This document shows positions 48,133 to 55,275 of a DNA stretch of 64,000 nt, piece by piece (within the stretch, counting starts at the first letter, position 1; each line of letters starts with the position of its first letter). The DNA comes from Oscillospiraceae bacterium. GTDB taxonomy: Bacteria > Bacillota > Clostridia > Oscillospirales > JAAYXM01. The DNA lies in the NCBI GenBank assembly GCA_017435965.1, contig JAFSEA010000042.1, forward strand, positions 12,250 through 76,249, in the 5' to 3' direction. The notes beneath the pieces were generated by a model. The model was given only the letters and a program-made list of their open reading frames with translations. It was not told the DNA's origin and did not search any database. The translations under genes were made by a program, and so were the position numbers.

Positions 48133-51100
48133 ATGGCAGGGAGGTGCTTGCATATTTTGAAACGGTATAGAGTGGGTGTGGATGTCGGTTCGACAACGAT
48201 AAAGGTTATATTGCTCGACGAAAATAATGAAATCATATACAAAAGATATGAAAGGCATTGTGCACGTATCCAGGAAACTATGACAGAGCTTCTTGTAGAA
48301 GCACGCAGTATTGTGGGAAAGTGTATTTTGCATATAAGAATGACGGGCTCCGGTGCTATAAATCTTGCAAAAGCATTGGAGACCGGGTTTGTGCAGGAGG
48401 TGGCTGCGGTTGCGGTTGCTCTCAAGGAAAAACTTCCTCAAACGGACGTTGCTATCGAGCTTGGAGGAGAAGATGCTAAGATAATATACTTTGACAATGG
48501 TATAGAAGAGAGAATGAATGGTGTATGTGCCGGCGGAACGGGAGCATTCATCGACCAGATGGCAGCACTTTTGCAAACTGATGCAAAAGGACTTGATGAT
48601 GCGGCAAAAAAGTATAAGCAGATATATCCCATAGCGGCACGTTGCGGTGTTTTTGCAAAGACAGACATACAGCCGCTTATCAATGAGGGAGCTGCTGTTC
48701 CTGATCTTGCGGCATCTATTTTTCAGGCTGTGGTAAATCAGACAATTTCGGGGCTTGCCTGCGGCAGACCGATTCGCGGCTGCGTTGCATTTCTCGGTGG
48801 ACCGCTTCACTTTTTGCCTGAACTTAAGAAGGCGTTTGCAAGAACTTTAGAACTCACTCCCGATAAGATGGCAGAAAGTGAAGATTCTCATCTTTTTGCG
48901 GCTTTCGGTGCGGCGCTGAATGCGGATGAAGAAATGGGCGTGGAAATAGATGCGTTCATAGAAAAAATGCAACAAGGGATACAAATGCAGTTTGAGATAA
49001 AAAGACTTGATCCTTTGTTTGAAAGTGAGTCGGAGTATAAAGAATTTTGCGATCGCCATAGTGATGCGGTTGTTTTCAAAAAAGATATTTCGGAATATCG
49101 CGGAAAATGTTTTCTCGGTATAGATGCAGGCTCTACTACCACAAAGATGGCACTTATCGGAGAAGCGGGAGAGCTTTTATTTTCTTATTATGCAAACAAC
49201 AGAGGAAACCCCATTCATACTGCCATTGATGCAATGGTCAAGCTTGGCGAGAAGCTTCCGGATGGCGCAGAAATTGTTCGTTCCTGTTCCACGGGTTATG
49301 GTGAGGCACTACTCAAAACTGCATTTTCTCTTGATGTCGGCGAGGTTGAGACTGTAGCTCATTGTACAGCCGCAACATTTTTTGATTGTGATGCTGATTG
49401 CATTCTTGATATCGGCGGTCAGGATATGAAGTTCATACGTCTTAAAAATGGCGTGGTGGATAATGTAATACTTAATGAAGCTTGCTCCTCCGGTTGTGGG
49501 TCTTTTATTGAGAGTTTTGCGGCATCGTTGGGTTATGATGCGGAGGGTTTTGCGAATGAAGCCCTGTATGCGAAAAATCCGGTTGATTTAGGGACTCGTT
49601 GCACAGTTTTTATGAATTCCAATGTAAAACAGGCACAAAAAGAAGGCGCATCGGTATCGGATATTTCTGCAGGTCTTGCGTATTCGGTAATCAAAAATGC
49701 GCTGTTTAAAGTTATAAAGCTCGGAGATGTGTCTGAACTTGGAAACAGAATAGTAGTTCAGGGCGGAACGTTTTATAACCATGCTGTTCTTCGTGCTTTT
49801 GAAAAGGTTTCGGGAAAGAATGCCGTTTGTCCCGATATTTCCGGAATAATGGGTGCTTTTGGCGCTGCACTCATTGCAAAAAACGGATACACAGGACAGA
49901 AAAGTACAATGCTCTCTTTTGAGGAGATAGCTACTCTTACATATAAAACAAAAGTTACAAGATGCTCCGGTTGTACGAATAATTGCATACTCACGATAAA
50001 TGATTTTGGCAACGGCAGGCGTCATATCACAGGCAATCGTTGTGAAAAAGGAATTGGCACAAAGCTGAGTACGGCTGCTCCCAATCTTGTGCAATATAAG
50101 CGTGAGCGTATTTTTGCCTACGAACCGCTTTCTGAGGAAGATGCTTTCCGCGGAACAATAGGTATACCTCGTGTTCTTAATATTTACGAAAATTTTCCAT
50201 TCTGGGCAACTTTCTGGAAAGAGCTCGGCTTCAAAGTTGTACTTTCCCCGTTTTCTGACAGACGGATATATGAATTGGGAATGGAATCCATTCCGTCTGA
50301 GTCGGAATGCTATCCGGCAAAGCTCGCTCACGGACATATCGAATGGCTTATCAAAAATGGAATAAAAACAATTTTTTATCCGTGTGTATACTACGAAAAG
50401 CAGGAGACAGAAGCTGCACAGAACCACTACAACTGTCCGATTGTTGTGTCTTATCCCGAAAACATAAAGAACAATGTGGAAGAAATAGCTGACGGCGATG
50501 TGGATTTTGTAAGACCTTTCGTTGCGTTTACGGATGAAAAAACAGTTGCAGATCGACTTGTGATGTTATGTTGTGATAAATGGCAGATAGCAACAAGTGA
50601 AATTCTTTCGGCAGTTAAAAAAGCTTGGGAAGAGATGGAAAAGGCAAAGTCGGATATTCTTGAAGAAGGAAAGCGTGTTCTTTCCGAGATGGAAAAAAGG
50701 GGAGAATGTGGCATTGTAATTGCGGGAAGACCGTATCATATCGACCCTGAAATAAATCACGGAATCCCTGAGCTTATTTCTTCTTTTGGTCTCACTGTTT
50801 TCACGGAAGATAGCGTACCGGTCGATTTTGTGCCCACACGGCCACTCCGTGTTGTTGATCAATGGGTTTATCATTCGAGACTTTATAATGCGGCGGAATT
50901 TGTGAGCACCCGTGATGATCTGGAACTGATTCAGTTCAATTCCTTCGGTTGTGGTCTTGATGCGGTCACAACTGATCAGGTGTGTGAAATACTTGAGAAG
51001 AACAATAAGCTTTATACTCTCCTTAAGATAGATGAAGTCAATAATCTCGGCGCGGCAAGAATACGGATCAGAAGTCTTGTTTCTGCAATGAAGATGCGTG

Positions 51101-52380
51101 GTGAAAGGGGAATAAAGGCTGAGGCTTGCTCCGAAAAATATAACAGGGTTGAGTTCACGAAAAAGATGTTCGATGAGAATTATACAATCCTTGCACCGCA
51201 GATGAGTCCGATACATTTCGATATCCTCCGTCCGATATTTGAAAAAGCAGGGTATAATGTTGTTGTTCTTGATAATGACAATAGAAGTGCTATCGACGTT
51301 GGTCTTAAGTTTGTAAATAATGATGCTTGTTTCCCGTCAATAACCGTTGTTGGTCAGATTATGGAAGCTGTTTTATCCGGGAAATATGACACGGATAAAC
51401 TTGCTGTTATGGTAACTCAGACCGGCGGCTGTTGCCGTGCAAGTAATTATGTTGGGTTCATACGAAAGGCACTTGCAAAAGCAAATCTTTCTCATATTCC
51501 GGTTATTTCCCTCAATGCCAATGGTATGGAGAAAAATGAGGGATTCAAGCCAGGTATAAAAATGATAGTTGATGCGGCAAAAGCGATTGTGTATGGAGAC
51601 CTTCTTATGCGCTGTCTTTATAGAGTCCGTCCTTATGAGAAGGTTACGGGTGATGCGGAAAGATTGCTGAAAAAGTGGAGTGAAATCTGCGTTGACTCTC
51701 TGGTTAATCCCAAGAGCGAATATAAATATAAGAAGGTTTGCTATGGTATTGTTCGGGATTTTGATTCGTTGCCCATTGATGAAACTGTAAAAAAACCGCG
51801 AGTCGGTATAGTTGGTGAGATTCTTGTAAAATATATGCCTCTTGCCAATAATCATCTGGTTGAGCTGTTGGAAAAAGAAGGTGCAGAAGTCGTTGTTCCT
51901 GATCTTATGGACTTTATGAATTACACGTTCTACAATGCTCATTATAAAACGGAGTTTCTCGGTGAGGGGAAAGCTTCGTCACGTGTTGCGAAGATTGCAG
52001 TCGCACTTATTCAGCGTTTCAGGCGACACGCGATAAAGGCTCTCGGAAAAAGTAAACGTTTTGAAGCACCTGAACATATAAGTGAACTTGCTGAAAGAGC
52101 AAAGCCGTTCTTGTCTCTCGGTAACCAATATGGTGAAGGGTGGTTCCTTACCGGAGAAATGGCAAAGCTTGTTTCGGGTGATGTTCCGAATGTCATATGC
52201 GTTCAGCCGTTTGCGTGTCTTCCGAATCACGTTGTCGGCAAAGGTGTTATCAAAGCTATGAAAAAAGTATATCCCGAAGCAAATATTGTTGCGGTGGATT
52301 ATGACCCCGGTGCAAGCGAGGTAAACCAGCTCAACAGAATAAAATTGATGCTGACAACAGCAAAAGAAAAACTCAAATAA
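48133..52380 (+). CDS. 1415-aa fusion: two BcrAD/BadFG-type activase ATPase modules plus 2-hydroxyacyl-CoA-dehydratase-like (HgdB/D-component-like) C-terminal region; substrate unknown
   Basis: Two ASKHA phosphate-1 motifs (VGVDVGSTTIKV near aa 15, LGIDAGSTTTKM near aa 330), each followed by Cys-containing NGVCAGGTGAF / NEACSSGCGSF segments. A long Cys-rich C-terminal half follows. Confidence 0.75.
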   Translation: MAGRCLHILKRYRVGVDVGSTTIKVILLDENNEIIYKRYERHCARIQETMTELLVEARSIVGKCILHIRMTGSGAINLAKALETGFVQEVAAVAVALKEKLPQTDVAIELGGEDAKIIYFDNGIEERMNGVCAGGTGAFIDQMAALLQTDAKGLDDAAKKYKQIYPIAARCGVFAKTDIQPLINEGAAVPDLAASIFQAVVNQTISGLACGRPIRGCVAFLGGPLHFLPELKKAFARTLELTPDKMAESEDSHLFAAFGAALNADEEMGVEIDAFIEKMQQGIQMQFEIKRLDPLFESESEYKEFCDRHSDAVVFKKDISEYRGKCFLGIDAGSTTTKMALIGEAGELLFSYYANNRGNPIHTAIDAMVKLGEKLPDGAEIVRSCSTGYGEALLKTAFSLDVGEVETVAHCTAATFFDCDADCILDIGGQDMKFIRLKNGVVDNVILNEACSSGCGSFIESFAASLGYDAEGFANEALYAKNPVDLGTRCTVFMNSNVKQAQKEGASVSDISAGLAYSVIKNALFKVIKLGDVSELGNRIVVQGGTFYNHAVLRAFEKVSGKNAVCPDISGIMGAFGAALIAKNGYTGQKSTMLSFEEIATLTYKTKVTRCSGCTNNCILTINDFGNGRRHITGNRCEKGIGTKLSTAAPNLVQYKRERIFAYEPLSEEDAFRGTIGIPRVLNIYENFPFWATFWKELGFKVVLSPFSDRRIYELGMESIPSESECYPAKLAHGHIEWLIKNGIKTIFYPCVYYEKQETEAAQNHYNCPIVVSYPENIKNNVEEIADGDVDFVRPFVAFTDEKTVADRLVMLCCDKWQIATSEILSAVKKAWEEMEKAKSDILEEGKRVLSEMEKRGECGIVIAGRPYHIDPEINHGIPELISSFGLTVFTEDSVPVDFVPTRPLRVVDQWVYHSRLYNAAEFVSTRDDLELIQFNSFGCGLDAVTTDQVCEILEKNNKLYTLLKIDEVNNLGAARIRIRSLVSAMKMRGERGIKAEACSEKYNRVEFTKKMFDENYTILAPQMSPIHFDILRPIFEKAGYNVVVLDNDNRSAIDVGLKFVNNDACFPSITVVGQIMEAVLSGKYDTDKLAVMVTQTGGCCRASNYVGFIRKALAKANLSHIPVISLNANGMEKNEGFKPGIKMIVDAAKAIVYGDLLMRCLYRVRPYEKVTGDAERLLKKWSEICVDSLVNPKSEYKYKKVCYGIVRDFDSLPIDETVKKPRVGIVGEILVKYMPLANNHLVELLEKEGAEVVVPDLMDFMNYTFYNAHYKTEFLGEGKASSRVAKIAVALIQRFRRHAIKALGKSKRFEAPEHISELAERAKPFLSLGNQYGEGWFLTGEMAKLVSGDVPNVICVQPFACLPNHVVGKGVIKAMKKVYPEANIVAVDYDPGASEVNQLNRIKLMLTTAKEKLK

Positions 52381-52381
52381 A

Positions 52382-52421
52382 AAAGATAACCGATTCTGAA
52401 CCGAATCGGTTATCTTTTTTT
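52382..52421. terminator. Bidirectional intrinsic terminator between the activase-fusion gene and the convergent alarmone synthetase gene
   Basis: aaagataaccgattc / gaatcggttatcttt 15-bp stem with T-runs on both strands. Confidence 0.85.
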
Positions 52422-53109
52422 ATATATTTACTTTTTCACGGAGTGAATCCATTCTTTTGTCGAGTTCTGCACTGAGTTGCGAACAAAGATATAAATCGTT
52501 TGCCATATCTTCGGTGAAGTTGATGTCTTTTTTATATTTAAGCTGATGCTCCAATGCGGCCCATGAGTCCATCGCAATTGTGCGCAGTTGTATTTCTACC
52601 CTCATGCTTCGCTTTTCGTGGAGAAGAAAAATGGGAACGGACACAATTAGATGCAGACTACGATAGCCGTTTGGCTTGGGGGATTTGATGTAATCCTTTG
52701 TTTCTATGAGAGTGATATCGTCCTGAGAGAGAAGGGCATCTGCGAGCATATACACATCGCGTTCAAAAGAACAGATAATTCGTATGCCGGCTATATCGTT
52801 GAGATTGTCTTCCAGCGAATTCAGGGATAATGGGATATCTTTTTTTGAGAGTTTGCGTATGATGCTGTCTAACTTTTTCAGGCGGGTTTTTATTGCACTT
52901 ATAGGGGTTCGGTCGTGTCGGAGGGAAAACTCCTCGTTGAGAACGTTGAATTTTGTTTCGAGCTCCATCATCGCACATTTGTAATATGCCATAAGTCTTG
53001 TGAAGCTTTGCATAGCTGTACGGATTTCTGTTGCTTCCGGATTGTCGCTGAAGAAAATCTCGAATAGCTTTCTGTCATTTTCGGAGAATGAGTAAAAAGA
53101 ATTGTTCAT
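52420..53109 (-). CDS. Small alarmone synthetase (RelQ/RelP-type GTP pyrophosphokinase)
   Basis: 229 aa, single RelA/SpoT synthetase domain: DIAGIRIICSF, KPNGYRSLHLIV, EIQLRTIAMDSWAALEH. Confidence 0.9.
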   Translation of the reverse strand: MNNSFYSFSENDRKLFEIFFSDNPEATEIRTAMQSFTRLMAYYKCAMMELETKFNVLNEEFSLRHDRTPISAIKTRLKKLDSIIRKLSKKDIPLSLNSLEDNLNDIAGIRIICSFERDVYMLADALLSQDDITLIETKDYIKSPKPNGYRSLHLIVSVPIFLLHEKRSMRVEIQLRTIAMDSWAALEHQLKYKKDINFTEDMANDLYLCSQLSAELDKRMDSLREKVNI

Positions 53110-53209
53110 TCCTGTTCACCTTTCTGTGTTTCTTCTCATTATATAAATTATCATTTAAAACGTCGAAAGTCAATGAACGGATTGTAAAATTTGAGAAAAA
53201 AGAAAAATT

Positions 53210-53226
53210 AAACCACTTTGCACCAC
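53210..53226. repeat. Left arm of a perfect 17-bp inverted repeat (aaaccactttgcaccac)
   Basis: Exact reverse complement of 53371-53387. Read on the - strand it is GTGGtgcaaaGTGGttt, facing the alarmone synthetase gene. Confidence 0.9.
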
Positions 53227-53330
53227 CGGGTTTCTTGTGGATAATTCTGTGGAAACTGTGGAAAAGTAATAATATTTCAATCATATTACAAAAAATGATG
53301 AAAAAATGTAATGAAATTTTAAAATGGGTA

Positions 53331-53359
53331 TTGATTTTTCGTTTATCTGCGTTTATAAT
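53331..53359 (+). promoter_or_regulatory. Sigma-A-type promoter candidate for the dcw cluster (Pmra)
   Basis: TTGATT - 17 nt - TATAAT, 46 nt upstream of the mraZ GTG. Confidence 0.55.
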
Positions 53360-53370
53360 ATAAATACGTC

Positions 53371-53394
53371 GTGGTGCAAAGTGGTTTGAAATGG
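53371..53394 (+). promoter_or_regulatory. Candidate MraZ operator: GTGG-N6-GTGG-N6-ATGG (10-nt phasing); the first 17 nt are the right arm of the inverted repeat
   Basis: Boxes start at 53371, 53381 and 53391, immediately downstream of the candidate -10. MraZ proteins are known to bind phased direct repeats at their own promoter. Confidence 0.35.
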
Positions 53395-53404
53395 AGGTGA
53401 AGCT

Positions 53405-53815
53405 GTGAGAGGCGAATACGCACATGTTATAGATGAAAAAGGCAGGCTGTTTATTCCTTCAAAATTCCGTACGGAATTGGGTTGCAGCTTCGTCCTCACA
53501 AAGGGACTCGGAAAATGCCTTGCGGCATATCCTTTAAGTGAGTGGGCGCTCTTTGAGGAAAAAATCAAATCTCTACCCACCCGTAAATCCCGTGAACTTC
53601 AGCTCTTCTTTGTCGCTCCGTCTCAGGATATGGAGCTTGATGGACAAGGGCGTATTCTTGTTCCTCAGAAGCTTCGCGCATATGCGGGGCTCAATAAGAG
53701 TCTTGTTATAGTCGGAATGATTGACCACCTTGAAATATGGTCCGAAGATGAATGGGAAGCACAGAACCTCACATCTGATTATATTATGGATGTGATGGAC
53801 GAGGCGGGTATATAA
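53405..53815 (+). CDS. mraZ: Transcriptional regulator MraZ
   Basis: 136 aa. Two SpoVT/AbrB-like halves, each with the DxxGR motif (VIDEKGRLFIPSKFR and ELDGQGRILVPQKLR). GTG start after GGAGGTGA. Confidence 0.95.
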   Translation: MRGEYAHVIDEKGRLFIPSKFRTELGCSFVLTKGLGKCLAAYPLSEWALFEEKIKSLPTRKSRELQLFFVAPSQDMELDGQGRILVPQKLRAYAGLNKSLVIVGMIDHLEIWSEDEWEAQNLTSDYIMDVMDEAGI

Positions 53816-54756: not shown

Positions 54757-55275
54757 ATGGCGACTGCTACAGACGGCAAAATTGCATACAATCTTGCGAA
54801 GTTTGACAACAGAACGCTTGTTAAAGAACAGGTAGAGAGAGAGCGTGTGGCAAGTCGTGCAAGGGCAAAAAGTCGTGCAAAGGCTAAAGGTCATGCAAAA
54901 ACGAGACCTGCAATAAGCGGCTTTGCTATTTTTAGCGGAGTGGTTGTTTTCACTATGTTGCTTGCACTCCTTTTTTCGTATGTAAATCTTTCTGAAATAT
55001 CTGATTTAAGCCGAATCAAAGGAAATGAGCTCAAGAAACTCAAAGAAGAGAATCAAATGCTTGAAATAAATTACAATCAGCGTTTGAGTGAGCTTGATGT
55101 CCGCGACTATGCTGTTACAAGGCTTGGTATGAGAAGAGTTGATAAATCCCAGATAAGATATGTGGAAACTCCTCGTGAAGATGTTTTTGAAGTTCCGGAG
55201 GAAAAAAAGAAAGAGACCGGAATCATTGCGGGGCTTGCAAATGGATTTTCAACAGTCATAGAATTTGTCAATTGA
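54757..55275 (+). CDS. ftsL: Cell division protein FtsL-like (bitopic, basic cytoplasmic tail)
   Basis: 172 aa. Basic N-terminal tail, one TM segment (FAIFSGVVVFTMLLALLF), then coiled coil. Position between rsmH and the class B PBP. Confidence 0.75.
   Translation: MATATDGKIAYNLAKFDNRTLVKEQVERERVASRARAKSRAKAKGHAKTRPAISGFAIFSGVVVFTMLLALLFSYVNLSEISDLSRIKGNELKKLKEENQMLEINYNQRLSELDVRDYAVTRLGMRRVDKSQIRYVETPREDVFEVPEEKKKETGIIAGLANGFSTVIEFVN

Follow-up and report, generated by a model that had tools for sequence, protein, structure and literature searches.

The intergenic region treated here lies in a stretch of 64,000 nucleotides (the window; contig JAFSEA010000042.1) from an uncultured Oscillospiraceae bacterium that occurs among ruminant-gut metagenome-assembled genomes (MAGs), and it separates mraZ, the first gene of a division and cell-wall (dcw) operon, from a divergently transcribed small alarmone synthetase (SAS) gene. 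It holds a perfect 17-bp inverted repeat with two short MraZ-type boxes in each arm, and the initial annotation, made from the letters of the window, had taken the two arms as one putative MraZ operator serving both genes. The MraZ-type boxes of both arms stand, whereas a primary role of the left arm as a SAS operator is not supported. We favour the reading in which the left arm belongs with the mraZ promoter (Pmra) and not with the SAS gene, and we lean, by a little, towards its being a distal auxiliary MraZ half-operator that would work with the proximal boxes of the right arm on Pmra, through looping or bridging. Co-regulation of the SAS gene by MraZ is possible, as an effect secondary to the role at Pmra.

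The repeat pairs 53210-53226 (AAACCACTTTGCACCAC) with 53371-53387 (GTGGTGCAAAGTGGTTT) at 100% complementarity with 144 nt between the arms, exactly as first described, and each arm reads GTGG-N6-GTGG toward its adjoining gene. These two arms are the only GTGG-N6-GTGG sites in the window. No further copy of the 17-mer occurs in the 64 kb even when three mismatches are allowed, and in the shuffled control of this search at least two matches turned up in just 3 of 100 shuffles. The MraZ repeats of Bacillus subtilis are GTGG[A/T]G hexamers with 4-nt gaps (bioRxiv 10.1101/2022.02.09.479790), and the resemblance to these published repeats, together with the consensus GTGGTG-N-AA-R-GTGG that the arms share, bears out the assignment of both arms as predicted MraZ-type boxes.

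Conservation was followed in 22 genomes (hereafter the clade), consisting of the window and 21 relatives (L011-L026, L038, L122, L123, L126, L127) in which MraZ is 63-95% identical and always 136 aa long. L128 was left unscored for its short upstream stretch, and the same-species contigs L001-L010 were left out, as their intergenic regions differ by 1 nt at most and are uninformative. The outgroups (L027, the L040 group, L124, L125) have MraZ proteins of 49-54% identity; a metagenome scan with the MraZ alignment returned 80 loci, 79 of them from one human-gut species at 54% identity, which served as outgroup only. In a neighbour-joining tree of MraW and MraZ the clade was supported in 100 of 100 bootstraps, and the SAS-adjacent group excludes L122 and L123 (82 of 100); L127 is not in this tree.

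The inverted pair CCAC-N6-CCAC is found in every one of the 22 genomes, 147-170 bp upstream of the first proximal box. All eight box positions of the left arm are invariant, and variation is seen in the flanks and, within the spacer, at positions 5, 7 and 10, with variants in relatives such as CCACTTTGCACCAC, CCACCTTCCACCAC, CCACTTTACACCAC, CCACTTTGCCCCAC and CCACTTTGCGCCAC. Because the boxes are invariant while the spacers vary, we read the arm as a protein site, and it is clearly under purifying selection. Its consensus, GTGGTG-N-AA-R-GTGG, is also the consensus of right-arm boxes 1 and 2 (17 genomes). The motif GTGG-N6-GTGG occurs 42 times in the 22 x 250 nt upstream of mraZ (7.6/kb) versus twice in the remaining 169 kb (0.012/kb), an enrichment of ~640-fold, and both outside copies come from the same intergenic region of L021 and L126. 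The inverted repeat as such fared differently from its boxes, as perfect complementarity of the arms is limited to 5 of 17 comparable genomes and 1-4 uncompensated arm mismatches are found in the other 12; on these alignments, the complementarity is thus not the selected feature. No distal inverted pair was found at the mraZ loci of the outgroups. As a separate observation, the sister genomes L021 (~609-1008) and L126 (~1119-1500) have a longer intergenic region, in which additional GTGG boxes in + orientation are lined up between the distal arm and the SAS promoter; in L021 this run reads GTGG-N5-GTGG-N6-GTGG and is followed by one inverted box. The region seems to gather MraZ-type boxes.

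The right arm is, by its sequence, a canonical MraZ operator at the expected position after the -10 element. It begins 11 nt past the -10 of Pmra and reads GTGGTG-CAAA-GTGGTT-TGAA-ATGGAG, with the third box, ATGG, in the 10-nt phase and overlapping the ribosome-binding site GGAGG, in agreement with the first description. The promoter proposed there, TTGATT-17-TATAAT, was found again by a promoter scan and is present in all relatives, its TTG and TATAAT being invariant in the alignments. Proximal boxes 1 and 2 are conserved among the relatives, and the third box takes the forms ATGG, GTAG, or GTGG shifted by 1. The sole type of indel within the proximal operator measures exactly 10 nt and falls between box 1 and box 2, giving GTGG-N16-GTGG (L021, L126, L022, L024), one more full turn at an unchanged 10-bp phase; therefore, phase matters to whatever binds there. 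The MraZ of the locus carries K12, R14 and R83, which are invariant and correspond to K13, R15 and R86 of Mycoplasma genitalium, the residues that contact the boxes in the MraZ cryo-EM structure (2026). MraZ operators are expected to overlap the -10 and the transcription start or to lie just past them, as the right arm does and the left arm does not. Neither arm has three or four direct repeats in one block, the usual mark of such an operator; the outgroup loci (L027, the L040 group, L124, L125) have 3-5 perfect direct boxes, and the human-gut outgroup species has 4-5 direct boxes with neither a distal pair nor a SAS gene.

The left arm does not travel with the SAS gene. It is intact in four clade genomes that have no divergent SAS (L016, L122, L123, L127), two of them deeply diverged. 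In L016 (2626-2800) SAS has been lost through an internal deletion, and what is left of it, ~80 nt from the 3' end, is fused near the place where the SAS promoter had been, in a gene order that is otherwise unchanged (a nagB-like gene, then mraZ), so that SAS is dispensable in at least one close relative, unless the deletion is a MAG assembly artefact. Upstream of the arm, L122 and L127 have a co-directional sulfatase gene with an intrinsic terminator ~30 nt before the arm, and L123 has a different co-directional gene. As the arm is kept without SAS, it must predate the arrival of SAS or have long outlived its loss. Conversely, no GTGG-N6-GTGG was found near three SAS homologues (64-71% identity) located elsewhere in genomes. 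The SAS -35 and the arm are separated by 26 nt in both clade B and L020, by 39 nt in the window, by 49 nt in L018, by 60-62 nt in most of clade A and by 111-113 nt in L021 and L126, values that are not in phase with the helix. In no genome does the arm overlap the SAS promoter, and it cannot occlude that promoter, since its position is always 26 nt or more upstream of the -35. An operator would be expected to accompany its target gene across genomes, and for MraZ and SAS it does not. On these comparisons the link of SAS to the left arm looks weak, and it is this part of the original proposal that finds no support as the primary role, since the arm is kept in four SAS-less genomes, is absent at relocated SAS genes and stands at a distance that varies between 26 and 113 nt.

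In contrast to the variable gap on the SAS side, the distance between the arm and Pmra is tightly held. In the window the arm starts 121 nt upstream of the Pmra -35, or 118 nt when counted from the first CCAC box. The distance is 118-120 nt throughout clade A and in L127, which is outside clade A, 128-131 nt in clade B and L122, and 108 nt in L123; L020 keeps the 118-120 nt spacing despite unrelated intervening sequence. From arm to arm, the distances form classes of 147, 157-160 and 167-170 bp, in steps of 11-13 bp. With one value per lineage, a Rayleigh statistic of R = 0.95 was obtained at ~11.7 bp, and 0.8-4% of random sets reach this R, the figure varying with the way in which independent values are counted. 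In all 22 genomes the two arms, 147-170 bp apart, enclose the -35 and -10 of Pmra, a separation that falls within the ~90-400 bp considered for two sites flanking a promoter.

We propose the following mechanism for such a distal half-operator. Both arms would bind the MraZ encoded at the locus, the right arm being an ordinary proximal operator at which MraZ would act as the repressor of mraZ-rsmH-ftsL-pbp, the part it plays in B. subtilis and Mycoplasma. The operator would be split, its proximal part having two strong boxes and, over the ribosome-binding site, a weak third one, and its distal part two strong boxes in inverted orientation; set beside the 3-5 perfect direct boxes of the outgroups L040 and L124, the clade has two perfect boxes proximally and two distally. 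Published MraZ proteins bind cooperatively as oligomers, their affinity drops stepwise as boxes are removed and DNA with two boxes is bound more weakly, longer spacers between boxes are tolerated when oligomerisation is possible, and they form octamers to dodecamers, with four subunits of the opened octamer contacting four boxes. Because of these properties, one MraZ oligomer (an octamer or larger), or two interacting ones, could hold both sites, with three or four subunits used at the proximal boxes and others capturing the distal pair. The resulting loop of ~145-170 bp would contain the -35 and -10 of Pmra as well as a palindrome that is conserved and, in those clade members that have them, DnaA-like boxes, and the bridging would raise occupancy and thereby sharpen or strengthen autorepression of the division operon. 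On geometric reasoning, the inverted orientation would suit a DNA segment returning antiparallel to the same ring. SAS would lie outside the loop, and its promoter may feel the nearby MraZ, the site presumably not being there for SAS. We infer the binding of the left arm by MraZ, the cooperation of the sites and the repression alike from sequence features and conservation.

Several points weigh against this mechanism. Our literature search found no MraZ looping or distal operator described, so that the looping rests on analogy. The inverted orientation is not predicted by a simple head-to-tail continuation of the oligomer along the DNA. The periodicity rests on just 3-5 independent distance classes or lineages, and its best period, ~11.7 bp, exceeds 10.5 bp. 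Moreover, the divergent SAS-mraZ pairing is kept in 18 of the 22 genomes, down to 63% MraZ identity, and L021 and L126 carry their extra box triplets nearer to the SAS promoter; both could reflect an action of MraZ on SAS. Looping had been mentioned at the outset as an alternative, and it fits the evidence better than the left arm as a SAS operator, but, as said, it has no precedent for MraZ in the literature searched.

An action on SAS is the substance of the first rival explanation, in which MraZ at the left arm regulates the divergent SAS gene and thereby couples (p)ppGpp synthesis to the division operon, alone or beside a role at Pmra. Conserved divergent pairs of a regulator and its target are a known pattern, and the regulator often controls its neighbour. 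Besides the pairing itself, the left-arm boxes face SAS, the 26-nt gap is fixed throughout clade B and L020, in the deeper branches, and places the boxes at about -62 to -75 of SAS, and the added triplets of L021 and L126 fall between the arm and the SAS promoter; enzymes of the RelP/RelQ type also respond to cell-wall stress in Staphylococcus aureus (PMC7533549). Even so, we regard this explanation as doubtful, given that the arm is kept intact in four genomes without SAS, that SAS homologues away from mraZ lack the motif, and that the clade A gaps of 39, 49, 60-62 and 111-113 nt are out of register. A literature search for a link between MraZ and small alarmone synthetases or ppGpp found none, and in B. 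subtilis RNA sequencing shows essentially the mra operon alone under MraZ.

A compound of the two, in which a split operator over Pmra (a loop of ~160 bp) came first and SAS was inserted later, its promoter landing 26 nt away from the distal boxes and coming under the control of that same complex of MraZ, strikes us as a rather long shot. If it were true, one nucleoprotein structure would set both the autoregulation of the division operon and (p)ppGpp synthesis, and in part of the clade it would include the DnaA boxes.

The left arm might also be a functional MraZ site that works independently of the proximal operator, acting either as a decoy that titrates MraZ or as a boundary insulating Pmra from upstream transcription. 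The site is indeed kept whatever the upstream gene, and in SAS-less genomes it follows the upstream terminator by ~30 nt; but 18 of the 22 genomes have no gene reading toward mraZ and hence nothing to block, and a decoy needs neither a fixed orientation nor a quantised distance, which makes this an improbable account. Less probable still is binding by a protein other than MraZ, whether of the AbrB/SpoVT fold or unrelated, with the likeness to the operator being convergent. Two boxes only, in opposite orientation, are unlike any described MraZ site, yet in most genomes the arm matches the proximal boxes beyond the GTGG cores (T5, G6, A8-A9), and in 169 kb of clade sequence the motif appears nowhere else, save for the extra copies in the same intergenic region. 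It is scarcely credible that the repeat matters as a nucleic-acid structure, be it a hairpin in RNA or a cruciform in DNA, or that it arose by chance or as a neutral duplication, and RNA structure was rejected as an explanation. The predicted fold of 53200-53400 does pair the arms (minimum free energy -50.2 kcal/mol, z = -4.5), but this strong fold in the window has no comparative support, with uncompensated mismatches in 12 of 17 genomes and no match in an Rfam search. The left arm lies upstream of Pmra, so that the arms are not on one predicted transcript, and constancy of the boxes amid changing spacers is what marks a protein site.

The DNA between the arms contains further conserved elements. 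The three inner GTGG boxes at 53237, 53249 and 53258, originally grouped with those of the arms, are present, but they are spaced by 12 and 9 nt and not by 10, and a DnaA-box cluster appears to be the better reading. On the + strand the units are TGTGGATAA, TGTGGAAAC and TGTGGAAAA, the reverse complements of TTATCCACA, GTTTCCACA and TTTTCCACA, so that several 9-mers matching the DnaA box TTATNCACA lie within 30 bp, and the window has a single perfect DnaA-box 9-mer, TTATCCACA at 53244-53236. TTTGG replaces GTGG in the middle unit of most relatives, and variation in the outer units is confined to the W of TTWTNCACA; most of clade A has TGTGGAWAA / TTTGGAAAM / TGTGGAWAA, the third box being degenerate in L021 and L126, and the cluster is absent from L020, clade B, L122, L123 and L127. 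The inner boxes may also be read as AbrB-type TGGNA pairs, but the conserved whole 9-mer TGTGGAWAA fits DnaA better. The DnaA reading is preferred because binding of DnaA is documented at the yllB(mraZ)-ftsL promoter of B. subtilis, according to the passages of PMC2533591 and PMC8203912 that cite Goranov et al. (2005). For part of the clade the inner units suggest a DnaA input into the division promoter. The left arm itself was also tried as a pair of DnaA boxes and rejected, its CCAC not being followed by a conserved A and the CACA core missing. The palindrome ATTACA-N16-TGTAAT, unique in the window, is kept in nearly all 22 clade genomes; TGTAAT-N5-TTTAAA resembles a WalR-type direct repeat.

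Table 1. Features of the SAS-mraZ region, with positions in the window.
Feature	Position	Strand	Details
RelP-like small alarmone synthetase (SAS) gene	52420-53109	-	229 aa; Pfam PF04607, 8.8e-33
SAS promoter	53145-53173	-	-35 TTGACT 53173-53168; 17-nt spacer; TG-extended -10 TAATTT 53150-53145
Distal inverted MraZ-type 2-box (left arm), candidate	53210-53226	-	CCAC 53213-53216 and CCAC 53223-53226 (+ strand); no third box
DnaA-box-like cluster, candidate	53236-53265	-	TTATCCACA 53244-53236, perfect; GTTTCCACA 53256-53248, 7/9; TTTTCCACA 53265-53257, 8/9
Palindrome and A/T tract	53285-53330	.	ATTACA-N16-TGTAAT 53285-53312, then A/T tract up to the -35; from conservation
Pmra promoter	53331-53359	+	-35 TTGATT 53331-53336; 17-nt spacer; -10 TATAAT 53354-53359
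Proximal MraZ operator (right arm), predicted	53371-53394	+	GTGG 53371-53374; GTGG 53381-53384; degenerate ATGG 53391-53394
mraZ	53405-53815	+	136 aa, GTG start; Pfam PF02381, TIGR00242 above cut-off

Features of the region are collected in Table 1. The operon has the order mraZ-rsmH (MraW)-ftsL-like-pbp, and the ORF at the FtsL position (54757-55275, 172 aa) is conserved in its place in the operon and has no matches in Pfam or NCBIfam. In the SAS protein RelA_SpoT (PF04607) is the sole domain, with no hydrolase or regulatory domains; its best structure match is RelP/YwaC (6fgk, 3.8e-50), followed by RelQ/YjbM (~1e-34), and it scores under the NCBIfam YjbM equivalog cut-off. With a single synthetase domain and the characteristic length of ~210-230 aa, it is a small alarmone synthetase of the RelP/RelQ kind. 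The -35 of its promoter, already pointed out in the initial annotation, is conserved, and a TG-extended -10 (TGaTAATTT, 53153-53145) lies 17 nt downstream of it; all SAS-adjacent relatives have TTGAC(T/A)-N17-TAnnTT, nearly always with TGn before the -10, and in the window the -35 is near consensus and the -10 weak. Two other promoter candidates were discarded, namely a leftward one mirroring Pmra, which would put the arm at the SAS +1 and for which the mirrored positions hold no -10 or -35 and none that is conserved, and a rightward one, TTTGCA-17-GATAAT, which overlaps the left arm and is not conserved in relatives. Downstream of SAS, an intrinsic terminator with an 18-bp stem (52379-52420) is bidirectional and common to SAS and the convergent gene at 48133-52380, which encodes a 1415-aa BcrAD_BadFG/DUF2229 fusion.

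Most bacteria have mraZ at the head of their division and cell-wall cluster, and the way in which the ring-shaped MraZ oligomer engages DNA is only beginning to be understood. If the proposed distal half-operator is real, the two oppositely oriented half-sites, separated by ~15 helical turns, would give a first indication of unused subunits of the ring capturing a second DNA segment. The interest is moderate and mainly for the field of MraZ and dcw regulation. A link between MraZ and (p)ppGpp should not be assumed from this locus, for although SAS does adjoin mraZ, and in a fairly conserved way, the supposedly shared operator does not follow SAS from genome to genome.

Compared with the MraZ systems of B. 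subtilis, Escherichia coli and Mycoplasma, the boxes are of the same kind, GTG(G/T) with 6-nt gaps and 10-bp phasing, and the proximal site has the same place, right after the -10 at the head of mraZ-rsmH-ftsL-pbp, with a cognate MraZ that keeps the DXXXR, Lys and Arg contacts. Known MraZ operators, however, form one block of 3-4 direct repeats, whereas here two perfect boxes and a degenerate third are joined by a second, inverted block of two boxes 147-170 bp upstream; we therefore regard the distal inverted half-operator as a probable new arrangement of the known MraZ operator, conserved across the clade. The mraZ gene of B. subtilis has no second intergenic pair upstream (White et al., bioRxiv 10.1101/2022.02.09.479790). 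With the DnaA control of B. subtilis yllB-ftsL (Goranov et al. 2005, as cited in PMC2533591 and PMC8203912) the region shares a cluster of DnaA-box 9-mers ahead of the mraZ promoter; it differs in that the cluster is a predicted one, a sequence match (one perfect, one 8/9, one 7/9) found in part of the clade.

As in the control of RelP and RelQ by cell-envelope stress in S. aureus, a RelP-like SAS is here tied to cell-wall physiology, in this case through adjacency to the dcw cluster. The known routes in S. aureus and B. subtilis run instead through VraRS or extracytoplasmic function (ECF) sigma factors, ywaC of B. subtilis being under sigM/sigW control, whereas here the link is positional and the comparative data speak against it.

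Architectural parallels are the looping systems lac O1-O3, gal OE-OI, ara O2-I1 and deo. Their palindromes are read by helix-turn-helix dimers, unlike the phased short boxes of MraZ, which are contacted by beta-strands of an open ring, and looping, which is established in those systems, is not known for MraZ, for which the evidence of phase gathered here is comparative only. The common plan otherwise comprises a strong proximal and a weaker distal site ~100-200 bp apart, the promoter between them, a regulator that is presumably multivalent and oligomeric here too, and spacing that seems to change in steps of about one helical turn.

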